A stretch of 51,779 nt of DNA. Origin: an uncultured Xanthomonas sp. (GTDB taxonomy: Bacteria > Pseudomonadota > Gammaproteobacteria > Xanthomonadales > SZUA-5). Numbering within the stretch: the first letter of the stretch is position 1; the number at the start of each line of letters is the position of its first letter. The stretch is taken from NCBI GenBank assembly GCA_964561825.1, contig CAZLSB010000003.1:1-51779 (forward strand), given 5' to 3'. The notes under the pieces were generated by a model. That model saw only the letters and a program-made list of their open reading frames with translations, searched no databases and was not told the origin of the DNA. Positions 18,635 to 51,779 of the stretch are shown here, in pieces. Made by a program: the position numbers and the translations under genes.

Positions 18635-19384
18635 TTATGGCTGCAAAAAGCGCAGGAAATAATCCTTGGCGCTCTCGGTCTTATTGATATTGACGGCATT
18701 CGCCGGATCGACATCTTTCGGACACACTTCCGAGCAATAGCCCACTGCGGTGCAGTTAAACACGCCCTCTTCTGCATAGACCAAGGGCATGCGCTGCGCG
18801 CTACCGGCGTCGCGGCTATCCAGTTTGTAGCGTTGCACCAGCGCCATCGCCGCAGGCCCAATAAAATCGGAGTTCAGGCCAAATTGCGGACAGGCGGCGT
18901 AACACAGCAAGCAGTTGATGCACGAGCTGAGTTGCTCGTAGCGAGCCAGCTGTTGCGGTGTTTGCAGGTATTCGCCTTGGCTCAGTGCGCGCACTTCCTT
19001 GGGGATGATGTACGGTTTGATCAAACTGAGTTTGCTCATGAAATCATCCATGACCACGACCAAATCGCGCTCGATTGGAAAATGCGCGAGCGCTTCAATT
19101 CGCAAGGTGCCCGGATAGAGATCGCGCAAAAAGATGCTGCAGGCCAACTTCGGCACACCGTTGATCATCATGCCGCAGCTGCCGCAAATCGCCATCCGAC
19201 ATGACCAGCGATACGACAAGGTGCCGTCCAGTTCATCCTTGATGTACTGCAAACCTTGTAAAACCGACATGTCATCAGTGAACGGCACCTCAAAAGCCTG
19301 CACCACCGGCGCTTGCTCTTGCTCAGGCCGATAACGCAGCACTTCGATGCGAATGGTGCGCGGTTTGACTTTTACTTGGCTCAT
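18635..19384 (-). CDS. frdB: Fumarate reductase iron-sulfur subunit
   Basis: 2Fe-2S, 4Fe-4S and 3Fe-4S cysteine clusters are present (CRMAICGSCGMMING, CINCLLCYAACP, CTAVGYCSEVCP). It overlaps frdA by 4 nt. Confidence 0.9.
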   Translation of the reverse strand: MSQVKVKPRTIRIEVLRYRPEQEQAPVVQAFEVPFTDDMSVLQGLQYIKDELDGTLSYRWSCRMAICGSCGMMINGVPKLACSIFLRDLYPGTLRIEALAHFPIERDLVVVMDDFMSKLSLIKPYIIPKEVRALSQGEYLQTPQQLARYEQLSSCINCLLCYAACPQFGLNSDFIGPAAMALVQRYKLDSRDAGSAQRMPLVYAEEGVFNCTAVGYCSEVCPKDVDPANAVNINKTESAKDYFLRFLQP

Positions 19385-21198
19385 GGCGGGCCTTGCGCTG
19401 ACTTATTTTTGGCGTCCGCGGCTTCACCGGCGGCGCCATAGGCACGCACGCCGGGTGGTGAATGGGTGATTTTGACCGCTGCGTAGCTGATCACCGGTGG
19501 CGCATCGCCCGCGAAAGTGGCCAGTGAGTGTTGCAGGTAGTTGGCGTCGTCGCGCTTTTGATAAGCATCCAGACGCTGGTGCGCACCGCGTGATTCCTTG
19601 CGATGCAGCGCCGACACGGCCATCGCCTGCGCCACCTGCAACTGATAGCCAAGTTCAATGGCCAACAGCCATTCGGTATTGAACACGCTGGAGCCGTCAT
19701 CCACGCGCACCCGTTGGTAACGCTCGCGCAAACGGGCAAGTTCATCGCAGGTGGCCTGCATTTCATCGCCCGTGCGATAAATGCCCACTCCGCGTTCCAT
19801 GGTCTGCGCCATTTCGCGGCGCAAGACGGAAATACGCTCAGTGCCACGATTGTCACCCACCAAACTGAGCGCGCGCGTTTGCGCGGCCTGTGCTTGTTGC
19901 ATTAAGCGCGTGCCATTGCCGGGAGCGAGCTTGCGCGCGTACGCAGCGGCGTGATCGCCCGCGACTTTGCCAAACACGCAGATTTCCGACAGCGAGTTTG
20001 ATCCCAATCGATTTGCGCCATGAATGCCGACACTGGAGCACTCGCCGGCAGCATACAAACCCGGCATCGGGCTTGCGCATTGTCCATCGACCAAGATGCC
20101 GCCCATCGTGTAGTGCGCCGCCGGACGCACCGGGATTGGCGTGAGCGCAGGATCGATGCCCATGAATTGCTTCGCCAACTCGCAGATTTGCGGCAGGCGT
20201 TCGCGCAATTTCTGGGCGCCAAGATGCCGCAGATCCAGATGCACCGCCGAACCCTGCGGTCCTTCAATCGTGCGGCCTTTTTGCTGCTCGTACCAGAAAG
20301 CCTGACTGAGCCGATCCCGCGGGCCCAGTTCCATCGCTTTATTGCGCGGCGTGGGTTCGGCCGGCCCCAAACCGTAGTCCTGCAGATAACGATAGCCATC
20401 CTTGTTGACCAAAAAGCCGCCCTCACCACGACAAGCCTCGGTAAACAACAAACCGGTCCCCGGCATGCAGGTCGGGTGATATTGCACAAACTCCATATCG
20501 CGCAGCGGCACGCCATGTCGGTACGCCAGCGCCATGCCATCGCCGGTGACGATGCCGCCATTGGTGTTTTCGCGAAAAACACGACCGGCGCCACCCGTAG
20601 CGATGATCACCGACCTGGCCTCAATCATGACGAATTCGCCAGACGCAATGTGGATAGCCACAGCGCCCTTAGCGCAGCCCTCTTCCACTAATAGATCGAC
20701 GCAAAAGTACTCGTCGAAGCGTTTGATGGACGGAAACTGCAACGAGGTCTGAAACAGCGTGTGCAGCATATGAAAGCCGGATCTATCGGCGGCAAACCAC
20801 GTGCGTTCGATCTTCATGCCACCAAAGGCGCGCACATTGATATGTCCGTCCGGCTTGCGGCTCCAGGGACAACCCCAATGTTCCAACTGCACCATTTCTT
20901 CGGTGCAATGGGCGACAAAATAGTCAACGACATCTTGCTCGCACAGCCAATCGCCGCCCGCCACGGTGTCATGAAAGTGATGTTGCAAACTGTCGTGCGC
21001 CTGCACCACGCCCGCAGCGCCGCCCTCAGCGGCCACCGTGTGGCTGCGCATCGGGTAGACCTTGGAGATCAGCGCGACGGTCAGTGAGGGATCTTGTTGC
21101 GCAATGGCAATAGCCGCGCGTAGCCCAGCGCCCCCCGCTCCAATGATCGCCACATCCGCCCGGAACGCTTGCACAATCGCCTCAATGGAACGCCGCAA
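19381..21198 (-). CDS. frdA: Fumarate reductase flavoprotein subunit
   Basis: There is near-colinear similarity by eye to E. coli FrdA (ADVAIIGAGGAGLRAAIA, SKVYPMRSHTVAAEGG, HFHDTVAGGDWLCEQDVVDYF, RPAAHYTMGGI). The true start could be a few codons inside the ORF. Confidence 0.92.
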   Translation of the reverse strand: MRRSIEAIVQAFRADVAIIGAGGAGLRAAIAIAQQDPSLTVALISKVYPMRSHTVAAEGGAAGVVQAHDSLQHHFHDTVAGGDWLCEQDVVDYFVAHCTEEMVQLEHWGCPWSRKPDGHINVRAFGGMKIERTWFAADRSGFHMLHTLFQTSLQFPSIKRFDEYFCVDLLVEEGCAKGAVAIHIASGEFVMIEARSVIIATGGAGRVFRENTNGGIVTGDGMALAYRHGVPLRDMEFVQYHPTCMPGTGLLFTEACRGEGGFLVNKDGYRYLQDYGLGPAEPTPRNKAMELGPRDRLSQAFWYEQQKGRTIEGPQGSAVHLDLRHLGAQKLRERLPQICELAKQFMGIDPALTPIPVRPAAHYTMGGILVDGQCASPMPGLYAAGECSSVGIHGANRLGSNSLSEICVFGKVAGDHAAAYARKLAPGNGTRLMQQAQAAQTRALSLVGDNRGTERISVLRREMAQTMERGVGIYRTGDEMQATCDELARLRERYQRVRVDDGSSVFNTEWLLAIELGYQLQVAQAMAVSALHRKESRGAHQRLDAYQKRDDANYLQHSLATFAGDAPPVISYAAVKITHSPPGVRAYGAAGEAADAKNKSAQGPP

Positions 21199-21257
21199 AC
21201 TGAAGCAAACAGTAAGCGACTCAAACCAAAGGCGTGTTGAGTCAAATCAAGGGCGAA

Positions 21258-22160
21258 CTATTCGGTGGGCGCGTTCAAATCAGCTTCGCTGAAATCAACG
21301 TCTTCGACTTCCAGCAAGGTGGTTTGGCCGCGTTCGCGCCGTCGCCGCGGGTGCAGGCGTAGCTGACGTTTAGACAACCAATCCAGCGATGTGCGTAACC
21401 ACCACCAGCGATGGATGCGGTACGCCAATCGGGCGCAACAGACCAACACCACAATGACCAATGCTGCCACTTGGCCAAATAACAAAAAGAGCCATGACAG
21501 CGCCAGCACGCCGGCGATCACATCAATCGAATCGTCTGATTCCAGGAAGACGTCACGGGTTCCGACGGTGCCCGTTTTTGCGGTTGTAACCCACAGCAGT
21601 GCACGCAAACTGCGCGTCACAAACACGCCAATCATCAACACTGGCAGGAACAAATTGGACAATACGGCCTTCCATTCCAACACGCCCAACTTGGTCATCG
21701 AAATCGCAACGATGGGCAAAACCAGCAAGGCCAAAATGCCAGATAGCACTAAAGTGGGTTGCAACTTCGGCTTCAGGCGCCCCGCCAGACGTACCGTTTC
21801 ACCCCTTTCAACGGTCCGACAAATAGCCAGAACTTCCTCAACGCGGTGCTCGCGTGCATGACTGTAATGCACCCAGCGCGACGCCAATCCGTAACGCATG
21901 CCATCAATGAGCACCGACAAAACCGCATTAAAGAGCAAAAACAGCAAAATCCCGGCCGGCGTCCAACCTAGCCAAAGGCCTAAGCCAAGAACCAAGAACG
22001 AGCGCGCGACCACCCAAATTTGCGCGCGCGCGTGCTGCATGCCACGCGACAACACGTGATTGCGGGCGCGCGCCAGTTCTTTCCCCAGCACCGCCAGTTC
22101 ACCATTGCGGATGGGGACGCGCTTACGCCGAATCAACAATGACAGAGCACCCAACATCAT
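21258..22160 (-). CDS. Hypothetical polytopic inner-membrane protein
   Basis: The start is taken at MMLGALSLL (22160). The track extension to 22325 is Arg/Cys-rich. There are at least six hydrophobic helices. I recognise no family. Confidence 0.55.
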   Translation of the reverse strand: MMLGALSLLIRRKRVPIRNGELAVLGKELARARNHVLSRGMQHARAQIWVVARSFLVLGLGLWLGWTPAGILLFLLFNAVLSVLIDGMRYGLASRWVHYSHAREHRVEEVLAICRTVERGETVRLAGRLKPKLQPTLVLSGILALLVLPIVAISMTKLGVLEWKAVLSNLFLPVLMIGVFVTRSLRALLWVTTAKTGTVGTRDVFLESDDSIDVIAGVLALSWLFLLFGQVAALVIVVLVCCARLAYRIHRWWWLRTSLDWLSKRQLRLHPRRRRERGQTTLLEVEDVDFSEADLNAPTE

Positions 22161-22494
22161 TTCGATAACCTCAGGTGATCTAGAACGATTGCACTTGGCG
22201 CATGGGAGGCGTCGCCCTGCCGCGCAGTGTCGAAGCCTTCGGGCTGCAAAGCTTGCCCGGCCAGCGGCTAGCTCACGGCCGTTAAGACTAACAGCCTGTC
22301 GTACTTGTGAGAAATCGGCTGTCAATTAGCGCAATTCAACTAGTGGACCGACCTGTTTGTCATCAATTCGCAACAACGCCGGCGCTTTCATTGTTTCGTC
22401 TACCACACGGAACGAAGCTTATTCGGGCGGATTGGCAATACTGTTTGCCTGGGTTTGATGCGATGCGCAGCACCTATTTGACAGGAGTATTTCA

Positions 22495-22983
22495 ATGAAC
22501 AGCCCTAAACGCCATACCGGTCGACGACTCGTTGCCCTTTCGTTGGCGCTCAGTCCGGTTATTGCGCAGGCCGACTATGTCCCTACGGCAATCAATCGCG
22601 CGTTCATTGACCCCGCCAGCTTGCCGGTGGTTGTCGACGGCTACCAAGGCGGCGACGAAGTATCATTTATCTTTGAAACCACGCCCGAAATTACCGGCGG
22701 CGCCACCTCGGGGGTGGGCGCGTGGTCGACGGTGTACTTGCCACGCGGTGCACGCGTCTTTGCCGCGGAACGGCTGGTGGATTCAGGTGGCGTCTACGTA
22801 ACCATCCCCGCACGTGACCTTGCCACCATGTCCAGTGCTGAGCCAGGTGGCGCCGGTGGCGATTCGGCGCTGCGCTCATTCTTTTTGATCACAGAAGACG
22901 TTTGCGGCGGCCCCGGCCTGCAAGATGTGCTTGCAGGCCGGGTCGCTGGCGTAGCTATCCATTTTTGGATGCGGAAAAGCTAG
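22495..22983 (+). CDS. Hypothetical small exported protein, possibly a truncated remnant
   Basis: 162 aa with an AGGAG 7 nt upstream of the ATG and the signal peptide LVALSLALSPVIAQA. I recognise no family. The C-terminus ends abruptly (AIHFWMRKS). Confidence 0.45.
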   Translation: MNSPKRHTGRRLVALSLALSPVIAQADYVPTAINRAFIDPASLPVVVDGYQGGDEVSFIFETTPEITGGATSGVGAWSTVYLPRGARVFAAERLVDSGGVYVTIPARDLATMSSAEPGGAGGDSALRSFFLITEDVCGGPGLQDVLAGRVAGVAIHFWMRKS

Positions 22984-23040
22984 ATGGAATGTCCTTGGGA
23001 TGGAGTTGAGTCCGACTGCTGGAATGCTTTCAGCGGGGAT

Positions 23041-23682
23041 CTACTTACCAGCAACATTGCCCCACAGCAGCTTGTGCAACTGCAACTGAAAGCGCACCGG
23101 CAATCGATCGGTCAGTATCCAGTCCACTAAGTCGGTGGGCGCCAAACGGTCGGCTACCGGCGAAAACAACACCTGACAGATGCTTTGCAGTTGGCGAGTA
23201 CGACATTGTTCGCTTGCCCAGTCGTAATCGGCGCGATCGGCAATGACAAACTTGATCTGATCCAAGCGGGTCAGCAGTTCAAGATTCTCGTAACGATTGC
23301 GCGCCACTTCGCCGGAGCCCGGGCATTTCAGGTCAAGCACCTTGCGCACCCGCGGGTCGACTAGTGAAACGTCCATCGCGCCTGAGGTTTCCAGGGATAC
23401 CTCATGGCCGGCGTCACACAAGGCCGTCAATAATGGCAAACAGGCGCGCTGCGCCAGCGGTTCACCGCCCGTGACACAGACGTGTCGGGTAGCGTAACTG
23501 GCAACCGTGGCCAACACCTCGTCTAGACTGCGCTTGTCACCACCTTGGAAGGAATAGGTGGTGTCGCACCAGACGCAGCGCAAGGGACAGCCGGTAAGAC
23601 GTACAAACACCGTCGGCCAGCCGACCGCGTCTGCTTCACCCTGAATCGAGTGAAAAATTTCGGTGATCCGCAAGCTACTCAT
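23041..23682 (-). CDS. queE: 7-carboxy-7-deazaguanine synthase (radical SAM)
   Basis: The start is at MSSLRITEIFHSIQGE (23682). The radical-SAM cluster is CPLRCVWCDT. The track extension to 23889 overlaps cpoB and is not protein-like. Confidence 0.88.
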   Translation of the reverse strand: MSSLRITEIFHSIQGEADAVGWPTVFVRLTGCPLRCVWCDTTYSFQGGDKRSLDEVLATVASYATRHVCVTGGEPLAQRACLPLLTALCDAGHEVSLETSGAMDVSLVDPRVRKVLDLKCPGSGEVARNRYENLELLTRLDQIKFVIADRADYDWASEQCRTRQLQSICQVLFSPVADRLAPTDLVDWILTDRLPVRFQLQLHKLLWGNVAGK

Positions 23683-41333: not shown

Positions 41334-41517
41334 GAGAAACCCTGACCCGTGTTCAGCCTGCGCAAGGTTATACAGCGCGGGTGGCCCGAAGACTTCCCAA
41401 CCTTCAAGGTTTCGTATTGAGTTCAACTCCGGCGGAACGATTCACTCGCTGGACACCTCTGCAGTCAGTCCAGGCCCACCCATTTTCCGACCTGAATCAG
41501 TGACCCAAGTCCTAGGC

Positions 41518-41549
41518 AGCCACGCCTCTCGCCTCGTGGCTTATTTTTG
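41518..41549 (+). terminator. Terminator-like hairpin with no upstream plus-strand gene
   Basis: The 7-bp stem is AGCCACG (41518-41524) / CGTGGCT (41535-41541) with a 10-nt loop, followed by TATTTTTGG. A second hairpin, CTGGAC/GTCCAG, lies at 41449-41473. No plus-strand ORF lies upstream. Confidence 0.3.
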
Positions 41550-42346
41550 GTCGATTGTTCGCCTCGCAGGTGTTGTGATCCGATCTCGTAGGCGTCTACT
41601 TGGTGGTCTTGTTGTGTTCTCCGGGGAAGTGCGCAAGTTTTTGGTTAAGAAATGTTTGGTGACCACGCTGATTGTGCCACCGTCCACGCCGCGGCGGCGG
41701 GGCTGAGCGGCCCGCGCAGAGCTTGGGCGTGCCCTTGCTTCAAAGTCTCATTGAACAGCGGACCGGGTGAAGGCCGCAAAGCCCTCCCCCATTTCAGAAG
41801 TCCCAATATCTGGCTCTCGTGTGGTCCGGATCTCGAGTCGTTCAACCTCGTCGATTCCCTGATCTCGCACGCAAACCTCCGACGGGGGACAAGCGCGTTC
41901 AGCCTCCGCTTCGGCATGGGTTGTTGGGGGTTGATGACGGGCGCCCTTCGAGCTTCATGAGAGCTTTAGCCTGCTCTTGACGCGCCGCCGCAGCGCGGAC
42001 AACATACAATCACTCGCCGATACGAAGGGTTCGGCACACGCGGTTGGTTGTTCCGTGTAAGGCGACACCGCCTGCGTGCCAGCCTTCAGAGCAACCTGTT
42101 GCCGATGCTTCTGCAAGGAGCTTCCCCATATTGCTCGGCCTGATAGTGATTCCCGATAGGCCGCTGATGATCGTACAGCGGGTAAGGGTGACCGCCCAAG
42201 TGCGGACGCGAGCGAGCGCCGGCATGCTGCGGGTGTGCTCGGACCTGAGCCGAGGAATCCACGTGCGGAAAGGGATGGGTGACGTGGAGATCGAACTCTC
42301 TCGGTGCACTGCGCCGACGCGAGAACCGTCCTGGCTTTCAGCGTGC

Positions 42347-44434
42347 ATGTTGCATGTCTTAGCCATCTTGGCGACCTTGGTGCTTGCTTTGTCGCAACCC
42401 GCTCAGGCTCGAGCGCCGGAAGGCAAGGCCGTCGCTGTGGTGTACGACGACTCGGGAAGCATGAACAGCCCTAGTAGGCGCTGGGTAATGGCGAACTATG
42501 CCCTGCAAGCGCTGGTGTCAACGCTCGGCGAGAGCGACACGCTGATCATCGTTTGGATGAACGTTGAAAGCCCCTCCGTTTATAAGGGGGCTTCCGAATT
42601 CGATAACGCGATCAAGGATCTGTCGCGACAGCCGGCACCTAGAAATGGCGGCACCCCATTCTCCTCAGTGCTGAGGGCCATTCAGCAGCTCGAAATCCAT
42701 GGCGCTCCAGAGAAATGGCTGTTGATCGTCACTGATGGTGAGTTTACCGAATCAGGCCAGGGCGACTTCGATCAACGCGCCCTGGAACGTGCTGTCGCCG
42801 CCGAAGTGCGCACGGGCTTCGTGCTGTTGGAGCTCGAAACCAACGACATTGCGACAAAGTGGCAGAACGCGGTCGGGGCGGAGATATTTGTCGCAAGCAA
42901 CCCTGAATCCGTGATCAGTGCGGTCGGCCGAGCTGCCGCTTGGCTGAACAACATTCCGGTGAGTGGCACCGGACTCGACGTGGAGTCCCAAGGCAACATC
43001 GTCCACGTTCGCTCGCAGTTTCCTATGTATCGTGTCCTTGCGCTTCGCCAGGACGCGGCTTCTGTCGAGCTTCGTCGCATCCAGACCGCCTCCACCCGCG
43101 TCGACAAGCTCCGCGAGCATCGATTTACCCCGCGCGAGCGACTTCGCGGCTTACCGGAACGGGGTAGCGTCCTCCACATCGCCAACCCGGATTTTTCGCC
43201 ACTTCTGCCGGATGCTGCCCGACAGGTTGCTGAGCTTGAGTTCGCCGCACCGCTTAACATTCGCAAGACGTCGTTCTTGCCAGTGGTTGCGGCTTCGCTC
43301 TCCCTAGAAGTCTTGGACTTGAGCGGCCAACCGCTTGAGGTCGAGCAAGGAAACCGAGTGAGTTGCGATGACAAGGTGCAAGTCGTGGCCAAGATCGTAG
43401 ACCACCTCGGGCAATCGCTTACGGCGCTGCGTTCTGACATCGCATCCTTTCGGGTGCGATTGCGGACAGGAAAGGGCGAGCCGCTCGACTACTCCGAACC
43501 TGTAGATGCCTTTTCGCGCATAGTGAAGCTCGGCACTCTTGGAGGCGAGACCATTCTCACGGCAACGGCGGAGTACCCAGGGTACTTCCACTTTACCAGC
43601 GCACCCTTACGTATCCGGCAGCAGGAGTGCCAGCGATCGATCACGCTTGAGGTGACCGCCGGCCTGAACTCAAGCGGCAGGTGGCAGCATCCAGTTGACT
43701 CGCTCTCAGAAGCGCGGTTTGTCCAATTGGCAGTCAAAGTGGACGGTCAGCCCGCCAGTCTCACAGAGCTTGAGCGCTGGAAAGTCGAGCTGGGTGAGCA
43801 CGAAAGCGCCATGGAAACTCGGATCGAGCATGGTCAAGTCCTGATTCGCCCGAAGCCCTGCAACTGCCTGTTCTGGTGGCTCCAACCAGAGGCTGGTACA
43901 TACGACATCCCATTCACCTTGCGAACCGGCCGGGCGCGAGACGAAATCGAGACGCGGGTGCTGAGCATGGAACTTCAACCTCTGGAGGGTTGGGGCCGCC
44001 GCCTGCGCTGGTATGGATGCCCATTTGCAGCGTTGGCTGGGCTCGCATTGCTGCTCTGGTATCTGCATCGACTTGCCACAAAGCACCGCTTTGGGCCCGG
44101 CTCCCGGTTCCTCTGCGAGGAGACTCCCAAGGGCGGCGGAACCATTCAACCGCAGACCATAATTCTGAGGGACCAGGGCAGACTCTTTTGGCGTTGGCTT
44201 TGGCCTAGCAAGGCGGAGCGAATGGTCGCATTTGGCATTCTGTTTCGCGCCTCTGCGGGCGGGGAGCTAGTGGCGGACGGCCGCACCTTGGGCAAGCAAC
44301 ACCGCATTCCCGGCTGGCGTTTTGACCCACAGCGTCGAAACGATCAGGTCCAGGACGACGCAACGGTCGGCGACCGAACAAGAGTGACCATTGACCGACC
44401 CGCCACTGACTTCAAAGCGACCTATCGCAACTAG
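42347..44434 (+). CDS. Membrane-anchored von Willebrand factor A (vWA/MIDAS) domain protein, first gene of the cassette
   Basis: The signal-like N-terminus is MLHVLAILATLVLALSQPAQA. An alternative start at 42275 is possible, and the ORF limit is 42044. The MIDAS motif DDSGS lies at 42446-42460, with GGTP and VTDGEF downstream. About 330 aa of unassigned sequence follow, then a TM helix (FAALAGLALLLWYL, about 44010-44060) and a C-terminal tail of about 130 aa. Confidence 0.8.
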   Translation: MLHVLAILATLVLALSQPAQARAPEGKAVAVVYDDSGSMNSPSRRWVMANYALQALVSTLGESDTLIIVWMNVESPSVYKGASEFDNAIKDLSRQPAPRNGGTPFSSVLRAIQQLEIHGAPEKWLLIVTDGEFTESGQGDFDQRALERAVAAEVRTGFVLLELETNDIATKWQNAVGAEIFVASNPESVISAVGRAAAWLNNIPVSGTGLDVESQGNIVHVRSQFPMYRVLALRQDAASVELRRIQTASTRVDKLREHRFTPRERLRGLPERGSVLHIANPDFSPLLPDAARQVAELEFAAPLNIRKTSFLPVVAASLSLEVLDLSGQPLEVEQGNRVSCDDKVQVVAKIVDHLGQSLTALRSDIASFRVRLRTGKGEPLDYSEPVDAFSRIVKLGTLGGETILTATAEYPGYFHFTSAPLRIRQQECQRSITLEVTAGLNSSGRWQHPVDSLSEARFVQLAVKVDGQPASLTELERWKVELGEHESAMETRIEHGQVLIRPKPCNCLFWWLQPEAGTYDIPFTLRTGRARDEIETRVLSMELQPLEGWGRRLRWYGCPFAALAGLALLLWYLHRLATKHRFGPGSRFLCEETPKGGGTIQPQTIILRDQGRLFWRWLWPSKAERMVAFGILFRASAGGELVADGRTLGKQHRIPGWRFDPQRRNDQVQDDATVGDRTRVTIDRPATDFKATYRN

Positions 44435-44470: not shown

Positions 44471-47400
44471 ATGCTCGACAGTCCAACCCTTCTCATTGGC
44501 CTAGGCGGTATCGGCGGCCAGATCGCTTACCGCGTTTGGCAGCGCGTTCCCGAGTCGGCAAGAAAGATCGTTGGACTACATATATTCGACACCGACCGCA
44601 ACCCGGATTCTGGCCTCGGAAGGCCTGAGTACGCTCCGCTGTGGGACAGTGGCGCCATTACCCAGACCTCTCCCGACAAGTCTGTCCAAGAGTGCGTCGA
44701 CGGCTTGAAAGGCAAGTCCGAAGTTCAGCGTTGGTTTCCACTCAGCGACACCATCGGCCAGCTTTCGATGACGGATGGTGCCATGCAGGTCCGTGTTGTC
44801 TCCCGTCTGGCGTGGCTCGACACGTTGGCGCGAGGCGACCTCAGGAACCTGGATGCTGCCATTGAAAAGCTGCATGTCGTTCGCCCACAGCGAGGAAAGT
44901 CCGCGTTCCGTGTCCTGTTGATCAACACGCTTGCCGGCGGCACCGGGTCCGGATTGTTCCTTCAAGTCGCACTTTATATTCGCAACTATCTGGAGGCGAA
45001 GCGCGGGCGCAGCGACGTCACCATTCGAAATCTGAGCCTGCTTCCGGGAATTTTTCTCGGCACCGGAGGATTTTCCGGAAGACCAAAGCAGATCCAAAGC
45101 GTTCAAGCCAACGCCTATGCATCGGTTAAGGAGTTGGAGGCTGTGATGGTGGCCAGGCACAGCACAATGACCCCGGAAGACAAACGCTTCCTTTTTCCGT
45201 TGGAACTCGAGTATGTGCCCTCCCGATCTGAGACTTCCGTGATTGACATCGGCGCTGCGCCTTTCGAGACGATCTTTCTGCTGGACCGAATCAACGCCGC
45301 TGGACAGTCGATGACCGCGGCATCCTCTTACATCGAGCAAGCGATCGATACGATCTACCTGCAGCTCATTTCCCCTCTGGAAGGCCGCATTGCGGGACAA
45401 ACCAACAACCTGGTTCGCGCCATCGATGCATCCGGCGGACGCGGCCGTTACGCCAGTATGGGTGTGGGCACACTGCGTTTTCCTTATGAAGATATCGTCC
45501 GATACTTGGCGCTTCGCTGGGCCGCCCATGGCCTGGACGACCAGTGGCTGTCGATCGACCGGCAGTGGCGGCGCGAAGTAGAGGAAGCTAAGCGCCGACA
45601 GGCCAGCAATCCGTCGGTAGAGATCCCCACCCGCCGCCAGCGGTTCGTCGAGGTGCTCGAACATCGGGCCAAAGCCGATCCGCCTCATCGCTTCTTTTTA
45701 TCCATGCTGCGTTCGACCCAAAAAATCGGTCGCGACGCCTACGATCAGGAAGTTTGCACCGATACCGTCAGCCTTTGGACCTCAGCGGTGCGACTTAGGA
45801 TCGCAACAGCGCTCGACAAGGCGGGAGGGCTGCAACTTACCCGCGCGCTCGATTCGACGGCGCTCAAGAACCCTGAGCTGTTTGTCGGCGAAGTCGCGCA
45901 GAATCACGCCCAGATTCTCCGCCTGCACGCACAAGCCGAGGAGCGTGTCATGCGAAGCGCGCAGCTGATCGCAAACGACATTCTCTGGGAAGACGCTAAC
46001 CAAGAGCCGTTCGTGGTCATGGATACCAAGGGACGCGAACTGGCGGTTTACCGTCTAAACACATGGTTGCTTCACCCCGGGACGGACGGCCATGCGGTTC
46101 ATGGCTTGCATCCGGTCGCCGTTCGCTACTTTCTCTATCGAGCGTATTTTGCCGTCGATGACGCACTATCGAAGACGCAGAGCGATACCGAACAACTGGT
46201 CGAGAATCTTGAAGCCATGCGCAGCAAGTACGACAACCCGAAGACACCGGTTGTCGAGTCCGTTGTGAACCGTGCCGAGGAAGTCAAGTTGAAGCACAGG
46301 TTCTGGAAGCCAGGTGAGCTGAAAGCATTCGCCGAGCAGTATGAAAAAGAGTCGCGTGCGCACATCGCATTGATTCAGTCGTGGGCATTGACGTCGATCG
46401 AGTTCGAAACGCTAAAGCGAGTCCGAAGCGTACTTGAGTCGATGGTTGCCGATTGGGAACGCTTCTTCGATGCCTTGGATGGCCATCTTGCGCAGCGCTT
46501 TCGAAGCGAAATCGAGATCGAGTCGCGAAAGAACGAGTCGGCGAACTCGATGGAGCTGCCGGTGCTGGGAAGGGCCCAGGACAAGGAGCGTTTCTGGTCA
46601 GACGTCAATCGTGGTTTTTCCGATGATGCGGTGAGTCCCGAAATATGCGCTCGACTCTACATTGCACATTTCCTGGACGCCCATGAGCGCCACATCGATC
46701 TGGACAAATACCAGCGACAGCGCCACGGGAAGGCCAACGCCGAAGAACGTCTTTTCAAGGAGCATGTCGTTGCCTGGTGCGAAGAACAATTGCGTCAACG
46801 CTCCGACTTGAGGTTGGACATCATCAGCGCCTTGCAAAAGGAATGGCAGTTGTCCGGCACCGGCGACTGCTCCGAAGACTGGATCCTAGCGCGCATAGCG
46901 GGACTGCGTTCCATGGTCGCCCCGTGGCTTCCAGATGTTGGCGAAGGCCGCTTCGAGCAAATGGAGTTCTGGGGCTTGCCGTCGGTCGTTAAGAGCAATC
47001 TCCCACCCGCGGATTTCGCCTCGCTCTTCGAGGGGGGCGGCGGCAATCCAGTTGTGTCCGAGGAATTCTCTCCGTTCGAGATCAAACGGTTCGTTGCGCG
47101 CTTCGCAATGAGCGTCTCCGACATTCCCGACTTCAAGCTCGATAGCGGCAGCTACGCGCGCGAGTATCGGCAGATGCGAGACCAGACGCTCGCTGACCCC
47201 AGCCGGGGAATTCCGGTACACATCGACAAACGCTGGGATTCACCCGCGTTTTTGCGCGAGATCGACGATGCCGAGCAGGACATCGCGGCCGATCGACTGC
47301 GACGCGCTGTTCTGTACGGCATCCTCCACGACGAGTTCGTGCTTCGAGAACACGACAGCCAAGGATACTGGGCGTTCATGGAGAACCAGCAGTCCCTGCC

Positions 47401-47899
47401 TTTGACGCTGTCTAGCGGTAAACGAGCTCCACCAACGCTGCTGGGGTTGTTCGATGGCCTCGCCATGCATTTCCGATGCGTCGACAATGCTCTGCGCATC
47501 GCATTCGATCGAGAGGATCGGGCGCGCTCGACTGACGACTCAACGTTCTCGAGCTTGCCGCTGCCCAACGCTGGGTTGAAGATGCTGCGCAGGCTAGTGA
47601 AGTTTGGCGACTCGAATCAGGACACACGAAGCCGGCAGCTTTTCGCAGCACTGCTCGACGCGTTCTGCGACGAGATCGCCTGTTGCGCGCTGCGCCAAAC
47701 AGGGCTTGATCATCCGATAACCGCAGTCAACTTGGCGGAGAAAGCAATGAAATCGCTTCGAGAGCGCGCCGCGCGCGCCGTGCCCGCTAAAGAGCGGACC
47801 AAGAGCCTGACTGCGGCCTTGGCGGCGCTCGAGCATCGGCCGAAGCTCTGGCGCAAGCGCGTCGATAACGACCTGCTTCCGGCGCCCAAGTACTGGTAG
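44471..47899 (+). CDS. Giant tubulin/FtsZ-superfamily-like GTPase (Tubulin_2-like N-domain plus a helical extension of about 850 aa)
   Basis: 1142 aa. The glycine-rich T1-like loop is LLIGLGGIGGQ (G10-G16, 44498-44518). AGGTGSG at residues 155-161 (44933-44953) exactly fits the tubulin signature [SAG]-G-G-T-G-[SA]-G. The T1-T4 spacing is like that of tubulin. GGAG lies upstream of the ATG. Confidence 0.8.
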   Translation: MLDSPTLLIGLGGIGGQIAYRVWQRVPESARKIVGLHIFDTDRNPDSGLGRPEYAPLWDSGAITQTSPDKSVQECVDGLKGKSEVQRWFPLSDTIGQLSMTDGAMQVRVVSRLAWLDTLARGDLRNLDAAIEKLHVVRPQRGKSAFRVLLINTLAGGTGSGLFLQVALYIRNYLEAKRGRSDVTIRNLSLLPGIFLGTGGFSGRPKQIQSVQANAYASVKELEAVMVARHSTMTPEDKRFLFPLELEYVPSRSETSVIDIGAAPFETIFLLDRINAAGQSMTAASSYIEQAIDTIYLQLISPLEGRIAGQTNNLVRAIDASGGRGRYASMGVGTLRFPYEDIVRYLALRWAAHGLDDQWLSIDRQWRREVEEAKRRQASNPSVEIPTRRQRFVEVLEHRAKADPPHRFFLSMLRSTQKIGRDAYDQEVCTDTVSLWTSAVRLRIATALDKAGGLQLTRALDSTALKNPELFVGEVAQNHAQILRLHAQAEERVMRSAQLIANDILWEDANQEPFVVMDTKGRELAVYRLNTWLLHPGTDGHAVHGLHPVAVRYFLYRAYFAVDDALSKTQSDTEQLVENLEAMRSKYDNPKTPVVESVVNRAEEVKLKHRFWKPGELKAFAEQYEKESRAHIALIQSWALTSIEFETLKRVRSVLESMVADWERFFDALDGHLAQRFRSEIEIESRKNESANSMELPVLGRAQDKERFWSDVNRGFSDDAVSPEICARLYIAHFLDAHERHIDLDKYQRQRHGKANAEERLFKEHVVAWCEEQLRQRSDLRLDIISALQKEWQLSGTGDCSEDWILARIAGLRSMVAPWLPDVGEGRFEQMEFWGLPSVVKSNLPPADFASLFEGGGGNPVVSEEFSPFEIKRFVARFAMSVSDIPDFKLDSGSYAREYRQMRDQTLADPSRGIPVHIDKRWDSPAFLREIDDAEQDIAADRLRRAVLYGILHDEFVLREHDSQGYWAFMENQQSLPLTLSSGKRAPPTLLGLFDGLAMHFRCVDNALRIAFDREDRARSTDDSTFSSLPLPNAGLKMLRRLVKFGDSNQDTRSRQLFAALLDAFCDEIACCALRQTGLDHPITAVNLAEKAMKSLRERAARAVPAKERTKSLTAALAALEHRPKLWRKRVDNDLLPAPKYW

Positions 47900-47926: not shown

Positions 47927-49657
47927 ATGCATGTACTTTGTTTCGATCATCGCGGCCTGATCGGCAACTTGCTGCCCTCCGCCTTGTTGCCGGAGGCTGG
48001 AGGCGAGCTGCTGATCGTGCCGGGTCTCGAGGGCGCGCATGGCGATGCGGTGGTTGATTTCGTGCATGCCCAAAGGCAGCACGGTGCCCCTTGGGAAATA
48101 TGGCACCTATGGGATACGTCGAGCACTAGGACCCATGTCGAGTCCTTGGCCAACCAGTTGGAGTCCCTCATTCGGGACAATGCGGAGTGTGCGCTGCATT
48201 GCCTTTGCGTCGTGCCCCTTTCGGCAGGTTCTGTGACGTTCAGCTTCCTTGGTCGCACGAGTCCAGCCAGCGAACGCGCATGGCTGCCCACCCCGCAACG
48301 CTGGACTTGGGTCGAACTCGGACTGCAGCGCGACCAAGGCCAAGACCTCCACGCGCTCCTCCCACTGGTGCTGCGGTTTTGGCTTTCCCGAGCGGATCTT
48401 GGTATCGCCGAGCTTACGACCTGGAACAAGCATGGCTGCTATCGCCTTCTGTTCAAGCACTCTGCTGAGGCACTCGGCGATACTCGGCGCCTGCTGGCGC
48501 AACGCTGGCGCGCGGCGAACCAACAGCTATTGAAGGATGTTGAGGCGCTTCGAGGCGCACCGTGCGAAGGCACGAATTTCCTCAAGCTGCCGGAACATTT
48601 TGTTGCCGAGCTTCGGCTGCCGTACGACGGCAGTGGCCGTGCTGTTGGTCGATCCGCAGGATCGACGGCCGGGGAACTGGGATGGTTTTTCTCACCCGAG
48701 GACTTTGCTCGCATCAGGGCTTGGACCGGCGGTCAACTCGCGACGTTCGGCATCGAGCTTAGACGCGCTCGCGACGCTGCCGATGCAGCTTACCGAGCGC
48801 AGTTGAACGCGTTCTATCGCGGGGATACTGGCTCTGAATCCACCGCCGAGACTCCTCAGGCCGCCGTGACCAGACTGCGGGGAGAATGCGAGCGCTTGCG
48901 TAGCGACACCCCTTCGGAGCAGGACCTCTTAGAGGACCACGAGGGCCTCTTGGTGGAACTGCGGCGCAGGGAAAGTTTTTGGCTGGCAGATCTGTTCGTC
49001 GCATTGCGTCATCGACCGAGTCGGCGGATGACCCGGTGGATTGTCGCCACCGCTGCCATCGTTCTTGGCGTCGTCGTCGCGTACCTCGCGCAGGTAGGGT
49101 CCGCCACGCCGCCTGCCGACGAGACACGATGGTGGTGGGCATTGAGCGGCGGCATCGTTCTTCTGTCCGCATTCTTGTTCGGTTTGACCCGGGCTCGACG
49201 CGTCTTCCGCGCTCGCCTGCAAACCGTTGTGTCCGAGATTGCTGCGTACTGGAACCGCGCAAGGCAAATTCATGCGGACCACACCGATATGCTTAATCGG
49301 CAACTGCGCCTGATTGCACTGCAGCACAACCTCGTTATCGCTGAAGCGGCGCAGAAAAAGCGTGAGCGCGCCGTCGCACAGAGTCTCTACCACGTGAATC
49401 GTCTCGACGAATATATCCGGCAGAACGCGGCTTCCATGCCCGACTCGCCGTCCACGAACGCTGTGCTCCCGCCTCCCATTATCCGCATCGATCAATCTGA
49501 ACGCCTGAACCCCGCGTATCGTTGGATCGGAGATCCTGCGCCCATTGAGCTGGCAGTCCCCGGGAGCGTATTCCAAGCCGCCCCCAGCAAGTTCAATCAC
49601 GACGGCCGTCTGTCGGGAATCAAGCGCATCGACATACAGGTCTTGTCGTCGCCATGA
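47927..49657 (+). CDS. Hypothetical bitopic/hairpin membrane protein with coiled-coil regions, third gene of the cassette
   Basis: 576 aa. A soluble N-terminal region of about 360 aa is followed by two adjacent TM helices (WIVATAAIVLGVVVAYLAQV and WWWALSGGIVLLSAFLFGLT, about 49030-49190) and a helical C-terminal region. I recognise no family. Confidence 0.7.
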   Translation: MHVLCFDHRGLIGNLLPSALLPEAGGELLIVPGLEGAHGDAVVDFVHAQRQHGAPWEIWHLWDTSSTRTHVESLANQLESLIRDNAECALHCLCVVPLSAGSVTFSFLGRTSPASERAWLPTPQRWTWVELGLQRDQGQDLHALLPLVLRFWLSRADLGIAELTTWNKHGCYRLLFKHSAEALGDTRRLLAQRWRAANQQLLKDVEALRGAPCEGTNFLKLPEHFVAELRLPYDGSGRAVGRSAGSTAGELGWFFSPEDFARIRAWTGGQLATFGIELRRARDAADAAYRAQLNAFYRGDTGSESTAETPQAAVTRLRGECERLRSDTPSEQDLLEDHEGLLVELRRRESFWLADLFVALRHRPSRRMTRWIVATAAIVLGVVVAYLAQVGSATPPADETRWWWALSGGIVLLSAFLFGLTRARRVFRARLQTVVSEIAAYWNRARQIHADHTDMLNRQLRLIALQHNLVIAEAAQKKRERAVAQSLYHVNRLDEYIRQNAASMPDSPSTNAVLPPPIIRIDQSERLNPAYRWIGDPAPIELAVPGSVFQAAPSKFNHDGRLSGIKRIDIQVLSSP

Positions 49658-50406
49658 TGATGGCGCTCCTTCCGTATGCCCTTCTCGTTGGCGTCCTGCT
49701 GATCTTGTGGCTGACGAACTTCCGGCGCAGGCGGCGCAACGAGCAGTGGCTGTTTCCTGTTGCCGCGCTCGTGTTTTCGGTCGCCGCGCTGGCGGCGGTC
49801 TACTGGCTTCGCGAGGAGTACTTGTCGCTGCTGGCGCGCTACGACCTCTGGGTGCAGTGGACTGAAGCAATCGTTCCCATCGTCGTCCCTAAGGACGTCT
49901 TCGGACTGCTTCCTTGGCTGAACGGAGTGTTCCTGCTTCTGTTTTCGCTGATCAAATTGTTGCTCAGGGGTTCGCTGGCGCTCGTTGCTCGACTGCGCAA
50001 GACGACACCTCGGGGCGACAGCGCCTGGGGCGCCTATGCGCATGTCAAGGACCAGGGCTGGCAACGGCAGCCAGAGTGGTACTTTGCCTTGCAAGCATGC
50101 CGTGCGCTGACGGTGCTGGCCTTCTTCCTGCTGCTTGTTTGCTGGCAGGTCTACGAGGGGCGCTGGTCGCCACCGCTGACGCCGATCCTCCCGGCCATGG
50201 CGTTGGTGATCTTCGCAGAGTGTGCCGCCTACCTTGGTGGACAGTCCCCGGGGTGTGGGGCTGTGGAACTCCATGGTGATGACGTTTCAGTTTCGGCATT
50301 CGGCAACTACTCAAAGGTCTGGAAGGAGATGCTTGCGATCTGGCCGAAGCACTGGCTGGCGACAGGCTCGGCGCGAATCTGGAGGCGACCCCATGGGCCC
50401 CGATAG
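49654..50406 (+). CDS. Hypothetical polytopic membrane protein, fourth gene of the cassette
   Basis: 250 aa with about five hydrophobic helices (for example ALLPYALLVGVLLILWL, FPVAALVFSVAALAAVYWL, ALTVLAFFLLLVCW). It has an ATGA start/stop overlap with the preceding gene. Confidence 0.7.
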   Translation: MMMALLPYALLVGVLLILWLTNFRRRRRNEQWLFPVAALVFSVAALAAVYWLREEYLSLLARYDLWVQWTEAIVPIVVPKDVFGLLPWLNGVFLLLFSLIKLLLRGSLALVARLRKTTPRGDSAWGAYAHVKDQGWQRQPEWYFALQACRALTVLAFFLLLVCWQVYEGRWSPPLTPILPAMALVIFAECAAYLGGQSPGCGAVELHGDDVSVSAFGNYSKVWKEMLAIWPKHWLATGSARIWRRPHGPR

Positions 50407-51779
50407 CCATCGGGCTCGCGCCTCTGAATCAGTCGGCGATGAGGAACTTGCCGCCGTATCCAATTGGATCGAGCAACGTCACAACGTGCTGCTGCTGAGT
50501 TGGCCCAACCCGCGTTTGGCGCGGTTGTTGCGCGCTGCCATCGAACGGCGAATCGGTCGCGGCAACAACGCGGTGCTGCTGGTAGAGAACGATGTGCAAC
50601 TCGCCGCTTCGAAAGTCTTGGCGCCGCCCGATCTGCAGGTCGCCGGGTCATTCACTTGCAGGGGCTACACCCGGCGAAGGTTCCTGGACGAAGTCGACGC
50701 CGCCAGCGCCGATGTCTGGTTCAAGCACCTCGACCTAATCGTCATTCCGTTTGCCGACGATACGTTTCACGCGCCCTTCGAATGGGAGCATGTCTGCTTC
50801 CGGATCATTGATCGCTACCGGCGAGCAGAGCTTCCGCTTCCGCAGTTTGTCCTGGTCTGTTCGCCGCGCAACCATGCCGAGGCTGCACTACGGCGCAACT
50901 TACCCATCTTCGATACGAGTGCGCGCCCGTACGCGACCGGCCAACATCGGCCGCATGAACAGGCATTGTCCGGTGTCGACACCAAGCACATCTGGTGGAC
51001 GCTCTGGGCGGCGGAACAGCGCTACGTAGGCGCCATTCTTCAAGCGCGACCGGACGTGGATTACGGCGTCGCTCCCGTCCTCGCCTACTTCGCGGGCCTG
51101 CGTCGAGTCGCGCCAAGCCGATACGCCAACCATCCAGGCGTGCACATGGACGACCAAGCCGAAGCTCTGCAGATCCAGATCGCTTCCCTTGGCGCTCGTC
51201 CTCCAAACGATGTTGTAACAGCTCAATCGAACACCCAGTTCTCCCGGTCCGAGCCCTGTAGCGGAGAAGTGATTCACGACGCCACAGGAAACGCCTGGCG
51301 TGCTCTTCGGGCATTCACCGAGCGCGGGGGAGAGGCGGTATTGCTGGGAATCGCCTGTGCGCCGACGCTGCTCAGGGGGTACCTGATCGACAACGCCGCC
51401 TATTACGCGAGCAGTGTTCTGGAGCCGCTCACACCCAGCATGGTCAACAGCGAGTCAGTTGTCGCCACCCAGATCTACCTGCGTCTGACGCCTGCCGGGA
51501 CTCGGCTCCCCATGGTGGAAGTCCGTAACGCCTTGGAGGGCATTCCGGTTGCGGACCGCAGCGTGCACACCTTCGCGCGGCTGCGTGCGGCATTTGAATC
51601 CGTATTCGGAAATGCCGTGGCCAGCGCGCTGGCACTCGAAGTAGGCGAGCGCTGGGGTGACGCCGAACAACGGTTTATTCGCGAAACGTCAGTGTTCCTC
51701 GGCACGGTACCGATAGCCGATGACGCCGACTGGCTCAAAGGATGCCGCGTCGTCGACGAAGACGGCAACGATCTTGATC
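50393..51779 (+). CDS. Hypothetical protein, fifth gene of the cassette (5' part only; runs off the window end)
   Basis: It is not in the supplied track because it has no in-window stop. The ATG at 50393 lies 8 nt after GGAGG (50381-50385) and overlaps the gene 4 stop by 14 nt. I read 462 sense codons to 51779 with no stop (MGPDSHRARASESVGDEELAAVSNWIEQRHNVLLLSWPNPRLARLL...). All other frames here hold only short ORFs. Confidence 0.75.
   Translation, partial: MGPDSHRARASESVGDEELAAVSNWIEQRHNVLLLSWPNPRLARLLRAAIERRIGRGNNAVLLVENDVQLAASKVLAPPDLQVAGSFTCRGYTRRRFLDEVDAASADVWFKHLDLIVIPFADDTFHAPFEWEHVCFRIIDRYRRAELPLPQFVLVCSPRNHAEAALRRNLPIFDTSARPYATGQHRPHEQALSGVDTKHIWWTLWAAEQRYVGAILQARPDVDYGVAPVLAYFAGLRRVAPSRYANHPGVHMDDQAEALQIQIASLGARPPNDVVTAQSNTQFSRSEPCSGEVIHDATGNAWRALRAFTERGGEAVLLGIACAPTLLRGYLIDNAAYYASSVLEPLTPSMVNSESVVATQIYLRLTPAGTRLPMVEVRNALEGIPVADRSVHTFARLRAAFESVFGNAVASALALEVGERWGDAEQRFIRETSVFLGTVPIADDADWLKGCRVVDEDGNDLD

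Follow-up and report, generated by a model that had tools for sequence, protein, structure and literature searches.

Whether a bacterial protein that carries the signature motif of tubulin is in fact a relative of tubulin, and what such a protein might do among the genes that surround it, is the question raised by a locus of an uncultured Xanthomonas sp. The locus lies in a stretch of 51,779 nucleotides (nt) of contig CAZLSB010000003.1 (assembly GCA_964561825.1), referred to here as the window, and its central gene, gene B, had been singled out in a preliminary description made from the letters and their open reading frames (ORFs). Our analysis indicates that B is, almost certainly, a full-length member of the FtsZl1 family (PF13809, Tubulin_2), followed in its operon by genes C, D and E and preceded by gene A, which encodes an exported vWA protein. 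B is a new member of a family that has been recognised since 2010 and that has a Pfam model, and not a new protein class. Taken as a whole, that is, the identity of B together with a mechanism based on a membrane complex, this explanation of B and its operon is the best that we can offer, and on balance we expect it to be right. Gene B, of 1142 amino acids (aa), and its conserved domain are placed as follows:

44471 to 47899, plus strand: gene B, FtsZl1/Tubulin_2 family protein of 1142 aa (ATG start, 1142 open codons)
44489 to 45532, plus strand: Tubulin_2 (FtsZ/tubulin-like GTP-binding) domain, aa 7-354 (PF13809, Foldseek, hhalign to FtsZ)

Gene B is a member of the FtsZl1 family

Searched against Pfam, as the preliminary description had proposed, B gave a full-length match to PF13809 (Tubulin_2, 'Tubulin like') with E=8.8e-45 and 153.9 bits (cutoff 27), in which aa 7-354 cover positions 1-354 of the 356 of the profile. 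A database search returned 67 homologs, all of them with PF13809 and mostly 1110-1200 aa long; where the source gives a name (Alteribacter, Desulfovibrio and metagenome-assembled genomes (MAGs), in NCBI naming), it is 'tubulin-like doman-containing protein'. Tubulin_2 has been equated with the 'FtsZ-like' proteins of Makarova and Koonin (2010) by Santana-Molina et al. (2023, PMC9871819). Makarova and Koonin (2010, Biol Direct 5:33, PMC2875224) described FtsZl1 and defined its architecture as an FtsZ-like N-domain, a coiled coil and a helical C-domain, with a vWA neighbour, T6-H7 and the C-terminal polymerisation domain not being identifiable at the time. B agrees with that architecture, being 1142 aa long, with long helices and then a helical or alpha/beta C-terminal part in its AlphaFold2 (AF2) model.

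A scan of GTDB species representatives found at least 486 relatives, more than 30 of them in Bacillus cereus-group species. With tblastn, B aligned to the B. cereus-group loci over aa 2-953 at 29% identity (E about 1e-115), and each of these loci has an ORF of approximately 1120-1156 aa preceded by a vWA ORF of approximately 700 aa. The supplement of the 2010 work (PMC2875224) lists the FtsZl1 and vWA pairs BA_3637/BA_3638 (B. anthracis), BCZK3285/6 and BT9727_3335/3336, which match these loci by organism group, gene order and protein sizes, and not by direct sequence comparison or accession. Because of the PF13809 match, the homologs, the 2010 architecture and the similarity to the B. cereus-group proteins, we take B to be a bona fide member of FtsZl1.

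Neither B nor its relatives gave a Pfam match to FtsZ_C (PF12327) or Tubulin_C (PF03953), which sets them apart from canonical FtsZ and tubulin. The NCBIfam scan had no match for any protein of the cassette, and a search of PDB sequences, with B alone by phmmer and with the family profile, found no FtsZ or tubulin, only spurious helical matches. Since B has no signal peptide and no segment above the hydropathy threshold for a transmembrane (TM) helix, it is predicted to be cytoplasmic.

Nucleotide-binding loops and fold of the N-terminal domain

We then focused on the loops that would contact the nucleotide, with conservation read, here and below, from an alignment of 39 relatives. The loops, each with its FtsZ counterpart, are:

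44498 to 44515, plus strand: T1 loop, G10-L-G12-G13-I-G15 (G10, G12, G13 and G15 invariant; pairs with FtsZ GVGGGG)
44588 to 44593, plus strand: T2, D40-T41, in FDTD (invariant; pairs with FtsZ N-T-D)
44777 to 44794, plus strand: T3, G103-A104-M-Q-V-R108 (G103, A104 and R108 invariant; pairs with FtsZ GAGANPEVGR)
44933 to 44953, plus strand: T4, A155-G-G-T-G-S-G161 (G156, G157, T158 and G161 invariant; pairs with FtsZ GGGTGTG)

The exact fit of AGGTGSG at residues 155-161 to the tubulin signature of PROSITE, from which the preliminary description had started, was confirmed: the pattern [SAG]GGTG[SA]G occurs once across the six frames of the 51.8-kb window, and its chance expectation is about 2e-5 per protein of the composition of B. 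The placing of T1 in LLIGLGGIGGQ (residues 7-17) proved correct as well, its glycines being invariant and paired with T1 of FtsZ. In S5-T5, R186 and P192 are nearly invariant. When the family was aligned with hhalign to E. coli FtsZ, loops T1-T5 were paired in order (E=7e-4), as they were against an FtsZ profile (E=9.5e-4 and 4.4e-4), with HH probabilities of only 22-34%, which is consistent with the remoteness reported in 2010. This profile comprised 54 sequences, chosen as 50%-identity representatives; a homolog search with E. coli FtsZ had given only enterobacterial FtsZ of 98-100% identity. Sub-alignments of the family against a single FtsZ sequence yielded nothing significant past H4.

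The AF2 model of full-length B has a predicted local distance difference test (pLDDT) value of 87.8 and a predicted TM-score (pTM) of 0.75. With this predicted, not experimental, structure as the query, the top 50 Foldseek matches in the PDB were all alpha-, beta- or gamma-tubulin, BtubA/B or TubZ. The top matches had a probability of 1.00, E-values of 5e-4 to 3e-3 and 9-13% identity, and the alignments extended over 357-411 columns of tubulins that are 393-449 residues long. In the viral library the best matches were phage tubulins and FtsZ. Sequence and model alike indicate that the N-terminal part of B is an FtsZ/tubulin-type GTP-binding domain with intact phosphate-binding loops; the outcome that the preliminary description had named as its refutation, another Rossmann-like or P-loop fold, is excluded by the PF13809, hhalign and Foldseek results.

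The spacing between T1 and T4 had been described as closer to that of tubulin than to that of FtsZ. The length was borne out, as G10 and G156 are 146 residues apart, and the kinship was not. Most of the excess over FtsZ is accounted for by roughly 30 aa inserted between S3 and T3 (aa ~68-100), a region with an invariant S67 and near-invariant W88 and P90, and smaller inserts follow T2 and H3 in the FtsZ alignments. Tubulin owes its extra length mainly to the H1-S2 and H2-S3 loops. As the inserts of B are placed elsewhere and are family-specific, having been described as such for FtsZl1 by Makarova and Koonin (PMC2875224), the numerical likeness is best taken as coincidental and as no sign of closer kinship.

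The C-terminal region

Beyond the GTP-binding domain, the following parts of B could be delimited:

45788 to 47896, plus strand: C-terminal region, aa 440-1142, long helices and then an alpha/beta part (AF2 models)
46109 to 46126 and 47219 to 47236, plus strand: invariant H547-R552 and H917-W922 motifs (39-sequence alignment)

From about aa 360 onwards the AF2 model consists mostly of long helices, among them aa 468-505 (38 residues), 548-584 (37) and 615-685 (71). When the C-terminal 703 aa were modelled alone (pLDDT 85), Foldseek found no significant fold match in the PDB (best E=0.07, probability <=0.2). The preliminary description of this part as long, helical, without a TM segment and without a counterpart in tubulin or FtsZ thus holds. 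Across the relatives, H547-P548-x-x-x-R552, H917-x-D919-x-x-W922, P818 and Y899 are invariant, which suggests a putative conserved binding or catalytic site.

The operon partners of B

The partners of B are encoded on the same strand and in tight succession, with gaps of 36 nt between A and B and 27 nt between B and C, followed by overlaps of 4 and 14 nt:

42347 to 44434, plus strand: gene A, exported vWA protein of 695 aa (signal peptide, MIDAS-intact vWA domain, one TM helix, tail)
47927 to 49657, plus strand: gene C, 576 aa, with a two-helix TM hairpin at aa ~372-421 (hydropathy in 9 orthologs)
49654 to 50406, plus strand: gene D, multipass membrane protein (about 5 TM helices) of 250 aa, its start overlapping the stop of C by 4 nt (ATGA)
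50393 to 51779, plus strand: gene E, 5' part, running past the window end (89% identity to the first 462 aa of the 996-aa ortholog in L001)
D-E loci: 49654-51779 of the window (split); L002:15538-19407, L003:15571-19338 and L006:15512-19348 (fused)

L001 is the locus of the closest relative, with a B protein 88% identical to that of the window. The ORF of gene A begins mechanically at TTG 42044 (796 aa), and its orthologs align only from about aa 97. Read from ATG 42347, A has the signal peptide MLHVLAILATLVLALSQPAQA, followed by RAPEG, and at 695 aa equals the length of the L001 ortholog. We place the start at ATG 42347 because of this ortholog alignment, the classic signal peptide (…ALSQPAQA, then RAPEG) and the equal ortholog length; the first ~100 codons of the mechanical ORF (42044-42346) are probably untranslated. 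In the stretch of roughly 900 nt that separates A from the divergent amidohydrolase gene (41427-42346), no sigma-70-like promoter, Rfam family or terminator was found.

The vWA domain of A is matched weakly by Pfam VWA_2 (E=2e-4), and the residues of its metal ion-dependent adhesion site (MIDAS), D-x-S-x-S, T and D, show no variation among 18 orthologs. With its Sec-type signal peptide, one TM helix (near aa 555-573) that basic residues follow, and a tail of ~120 aa, A is predicted to be an exported vWA ectodomain with a type-I membrane anchor and the tail in the cytoplasm. In about 70 of 84 related loci, A is the gene directly 5' of B, and a vWA neighbour with an intact MIDAS motif is a feature of most operons of the FtsZl1 family. 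Gene C is weakly conserved (12-23% identity among orthologs, with no invariant column) and was matched by no family of Pfam, PADLOC or NCBIfam. D and E are fused into one protein of 1255-1394 aa in Bacillota, Bacteroidota, Desulfovibrio and Rubrivivax; they are separate in the window, where they overlap, and in L001, L005 and L063, including Panacagrimonas and a zetaproteobacterium. At the C-terminus, a Cys4 zinc ribbon and an HExxH..E metallopeptidase motif are invariant in all 12 full-length orthologs of E, and three orthologs gave weak, repeated Pfam matches to the zincin families BSP (PF04450) and DUF6782. Since no Walker A motif was found in A, C, D, E or the full-length E orthologs, B would be the sole nucleoside triphosphatase (NTPase) of the operon.

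Distribution and genomic context

The cassette A-B-C-D/E was found in Pseudomonadota (Gammaproteobacteria, Zetaproteobacteria and Rubrivivax), Desulfovibrio, Bacillota and Bacteroidota. Around the A-B genes of the B. cereus group, the upstream flank is 85-98% common across species, including B. cytotoxicus, and the downstream flank is variable; the A-B pair is stably inherited in this group. Outside it, the flanks of the cassette are unrelated. Relatives of B occur in 6 of 72,556 plasmid records and in one phage record. The latter, MT836542.1, is an unannotated contig of 9.8 kb from human faeces, labelled 'Bacteriophage sp.'; its positions 6988-8127 encode a Tubulin_2 N-domain with 33% identity to B (E=2e-53), and it may be bacterial DNA assigned to a phage by mistake or else a rare copy carried by a phage.

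The window itself is chromosomal DNA of a diderm bacterium, with genes for TolB, SdhA, MacB/HlyD, PriA and a peptidase S46. The guanine-cytosine content of the cassette equals that of the rest of the window, and a recent horizontal acquisition of the cassette was ruled out by composition. Scans of the window for Rfam families, tRNAs, promoters and terminators, and composition gave nothing informative, and PADLOC-DB v2 had no match for A-E of the window or for their orthologs in L001-L003.

Some neighbours deserve mention in their own right. After the L001 cassette (19384-23414, minus strand) come a 985-aa protein, a PP2C phosphatase and a second vWA protein; these PP2C and vWA neighbours resemble the kinase/PP2C/vWA theme of Kaur et al. 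(2020), and the equivalent region lies past the end of the window. In L002, from Alteribacter natronophilus, a Csm6_6H/Cas_Cas02710 protein is encoded directly 3' of the cassette (19458-20954, plus strand) and is the sole defence-flavoured neighbour seen. The window also encodes, 33 kb from B (8691-11279, minus strand), an 862-aa Ser/Thr protein kinase with tetratricopeptide (TPR) repeats, whose link to B is unproven; kinases are frequent neighbours of FtsZl1 according to Makarova and Koonin (PMC2875224). Two ORFs, one of 951 aa (13398-16253, plus strand) and one of 399 aa (1251-2450, minus strand), the latter inside the MacB/HlyD efflux cluster, had no Pfam match at E<=1e-5.

Proposed function and alternative explanations

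FtsZl1 is the only large branch of the tubulin superfamily without experimental data. For B, we favour a role in an inner-membrane complex, as the subunit on its cytoplasmic side that assembles or switches in a GTP-dependent manner, a tentative reading that is quite possible without yet being probable. B would bind GTP and change its assembly or switch state with the nucleotide. Its universal partner A would direct the MIDAS-competent vWA domain to the periplasm and the tail of ~120 aa to the cytoplasm, and in this subfamily the complex would be completed by C, through its membrane hairpin, and by the membrane-anchored D and E with the zinc ribbon and HExxH motif. Binding of a ligand or metal by the vWA domain outside the cell might then bring about GTP-dependent oligomerisation of B inside, and this a membrane-proximal output, which here would probably be proteolysis by E, a putative peptidase. 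This compact picture of an exported MIDAS-vWA protein, an FtsZl1 protein as the sole NTPase, a membrane hairpin and a membrane-anchored zinc-ribbon/HExxH protein could guide experiments.

Several observations weigh against this proposal. A literature search found no experimental paper on any FtsZl1 protein, and when it was made by the B. anthracis and B. cereus locus tags its only results were antibody catalogue numbers of no relevance. The peptidase domain of E falls outside the window. The B. cereus group keeps A and B only, without adjacent C or D/E (loci L008-L041), so that a peptidase output would not be the general function of the family. PF00091, the other profile proposed for checking B, remains under its gathering cutoff of 33 bits, with 13.1 bits for B (E=0.11) and 25-31 bits for relatives; sub-threshold matches were nevertheless obtained in 27 of the 39 relatives (best 4e-7; profile positions 3-166 of 190). 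The Foldseek TM-scores of the model are modest, at 0.30-0.42 of the target, so that only the nucleotide-binding half is securely tubulin-like. No GxxNxD motif of a T7 loop is present in B, and profile methods assign no T7 or catalytic loop either, which agrees with what the preliminary description had noted by eye. The alignments with the FtsZ profile gave two incompatible T7 mappings, both of low confidence. Lastly, the subclade of the window (B and its three nearest relatives) has T/A311-N312 and has lost D312.

In the first of the two mappings, from an alignment stretched to residue ~327 with low confidence, residues 284-300 would be H7, 301-313 T7, and R326-Y327-x-G-A-G S7. In the second, obtained with the downstream segment alone and not significant (E 0.3-0.5), P264-Y-D-F would correspond to the T7 'NVDFAD'; in the same non-significant test, 284-302 ('..QLxSPL') would match H9 of FtsZ ('..AIxSPLL'). 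A pairing made by eye (FLxDxxN as S6/T6, Y287 as H7, D312-N313 as T7, and RYxGAG with FtsZ GYAMMG) was dropped and is not claimed here, because the full-path alignment places it with low confidence and the downstream-segment test contradicts it. Helix 205-229 was also dropped as H7 (Y216..E221 against F182..D187 of FtsZ), since the FtsZ profile puts it on H5. Past T5, the acidic candidates conserved among the 39 relatives are E247 (31), D/E266 (36), D/E272 (37), D312 (35) and D363 (all 39), and E247, E266 and D272 are intact in B. One of several candidate T7-like positions, around which the family consensus is S-x-E-D-N, is:

45404 to 45409, plus strand: N312-N313 (N313 invariant; at position 312, 35 of 39 relatives have Asp and B has Asn)

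If position 312 belongs to the catalytic loop, the D312N substitution could alter the GTPase activity.

The mechanisms that can be proposed for B overlap in part. According to the hypothesis of Makarova and Koonin, B would be a cytomotive filament that polymerises with GTP like FtsZ or TubZ, maybe through a novel interface in its C-terminal stalk, and that deforms or vesiculates the inner membrane together with its membrane partners. All characterised members of the superfamily polymerise (PMC2875224), every partner of B is a membrane protein, the 357-411 columns of the Foldseek alignments hint at a second, activation-like domain, the near-invariant acidic residues E247, D/E266, D/E272 and D312 lie past T5, and stable vertical inheritance in the B. 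cereus group suits a cell-biological role. T7, however, is not alignable, nor was T6-H7 identified in 2010, and the TM-scores are compatible with a superposition of the N-domain only; a conserved zincin partner is ill-suited to a pure remodelling machine, the distribution is patchy and experimental support is lacking, and we consider the filament rather unlikely, if still worth attention. The absence of a T7 motif would instead suit a GTP-binding module that does not hydrolyse, in which the nucleotide is a static cofactor or a conformational switch without polymerisation, as in a pseudo-enzyme or at the non-exchangeable N-site of alpha-tubulin. T/A311-N312 in B and its three nearest relatives, against (E)D in 35 of 39, points the same way, and a review of 2011 (PMC3160578) raised the possibility that filaments are not formed by FtsZl1. 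Yet all the phosphate- and ribose-binding loops are strictly conserved, the acidic candidates E247, E266 and D272 are intact, and D312 is only a candidate for a catalytic residue; such a module seems unlikely to us. Because nearly the whole tubulin chain is covered by the Foldseek alignments and near-invariant acidic residues follow T5, it could also be imagined that FtsZl1 retains a cryptic, rearranged activation domain and forms, with the exported MIDAS-vWA protein, the membrane partners and the zinc-ribbon/HExxH protein, a trans-membrane, tubulin-based signalling or immune machine of a kind not recognised before, in which an extracellular ligand would trigger GTP-dependent polymerisation in the cell and protease activation. 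Such a retained domain would go against what was inferred in 2010, when T6-H7 and the C-domain were taken to be missing, and we regard this reading as decidedly improbable.

An immune role has also to be weighed on its own, as a biological-conflict system in which the vWA domain or the cytoplasmic parts would sense an invader, B would multimerise past a threshold like MoxR or STAND NTPases, and E would be the effector. Kaur et al. (2020, PMC7159879) assign modules of tubulin, coiled coil and vWA to GAP1-N2 GTPase-centric conflict systems. The cassette is shared by phyla that are far apart, and its flanks there are unrelated; C evolves fast, the zincin of E is effector-like, the Alteribacter cassette is followed by a Csm6-like gene, and a PP2C and vWA module adjoins that of L001. 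Against this, no PADLOC family matches the components, the DO-GTPase, GAP1 and FNIII parts by which such systems are defined are missing, a Walker A motif was found in none of the partners, the A-B pair is core-like and syntenic across the B. cereus group, the composition of the cassette is that of host DNA, and almost no copies are on plasmids or phages; with both sides considered, we doubt such a role. The possibility that B does not have a tubulin fold, its glycine motifs stemming from another Rossmann-like or P-loop fold, can draw on the non-significant PF00091 match of B alone and on the absence of PDB sequence matches to B or the profile. It is effectively refuted by the PF13809 match, the PF00091 matches of 27 of the 39 relatives, four to five loops paired in order with the FtsZ profile, structural matches (the top 50 in the PDB and the top viral ones) that are exclusively tubulin, TubZ and FtsZ, and the lack of a Walker A motif. 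Similarly disfavoured, to the point of being extremely improbable, is a plasmid or phage DNA-segregation tubulin of the TubZ/PhuZ type: some of the best structural matches are TubZ chains, and in the viral library phage tubulins rank first, but the context is chromosomal (PriA, TolB, SdhA), no TubR-like gene or centromere repeat adjoins B, the conserved partner is an exported vWA protein, plasmids and phages account for only the six records and the one record given above, and the C-terminal extension of 700 aa is absent from TubZ and PhuZ. The assembly or switch subunit proposed above remains the reading that we prefer.

Comparison with known systems

With FtsZ (PF00091 and PF12327), B shares the cytoplasmic location and the loops that align in order, namely T1 (GxGGxG), T2 (DTD in B, NTD in FtsZ), T3 (GAGxxR and GAGxxPxxG), T4 (GGTGSG and GGTGTG) and S5-T5. 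It differs in having ~60 extra residues between T1 and T4, no FtsZ_C and no recognisable T7 NxDxxD, as well as no C-terminal peptide for binding FtsA or ZipA; a 700-aa extension is present, and the gene belongs to a vWA operon, outside the dcw cluster. The structures that match B best are those of tubulins, BtubA/B and TubZ/PhuZ, and the T4 loop of B fits the tubulin signature of PROSITE exactly, but the identity is 9-13%, Tubulin_C is missing and the inserts are placed differently. TubZ and PhuZ, moreover, are proteins of about 300-480 aa carried by plasmids or phages with an adaptor and a centromere, whereas B has 1142 aa, is chromosomal and has a vWA partner.

The vWA-coupled NTPase conflict systems (MoxR-vWA ternary and GAP1-N2; Kaur et al. 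2020, eLife 9:e52696) resemble the operon of B in that a vWA protein and a variable, effector-like part accompany an NTPase for which multimerisation is predicted. In their firmicute representatives (Kaur et al. 2020, PMC7159879), the vWA domain lies outside the cell, and the tubulin and a coiled coil form one fused protein. Unlike these systems, the operon of B has no MoxR, DO-GTPase, GAP1 or FNIII, comprises a single tubulin and a single vWA protein, has no PADLOC match and is core-like in the B. cereus group. As regards GAP1-N2 in particular, which calls for one or more DO-type GTPases with zinc ribbons next to GAP1 and an FNIII-repeat component, no matching Pfam families were found and no such genes after the cassette in L001-L003, the region past E being outside the window.

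The closest likeness is to FtsZl1 as defined by Makarova and Koonin (2010), with which B shares the architecture of ~1100 aa, the AGGTGSG/GGTGSG signature, the T1-T4 inserts, the vWA gene directly upstream and a T6-H7/T7 region that cannot be aligned. The operon of B differs from the 2010 description in adding C, D and E. The families associated with FtsZl1 at that time (B1-B9, GTPase, OmpA and protein kinases) included no peptidase, and the operon in the window is without a GTPase, OmpA or kinase gene; its subclade further differs by D312N. What the locus adds to the known family is modest, and consists of the layout vWA-FtsZl1-C-D/E(zincin) together with the D312N substitution.

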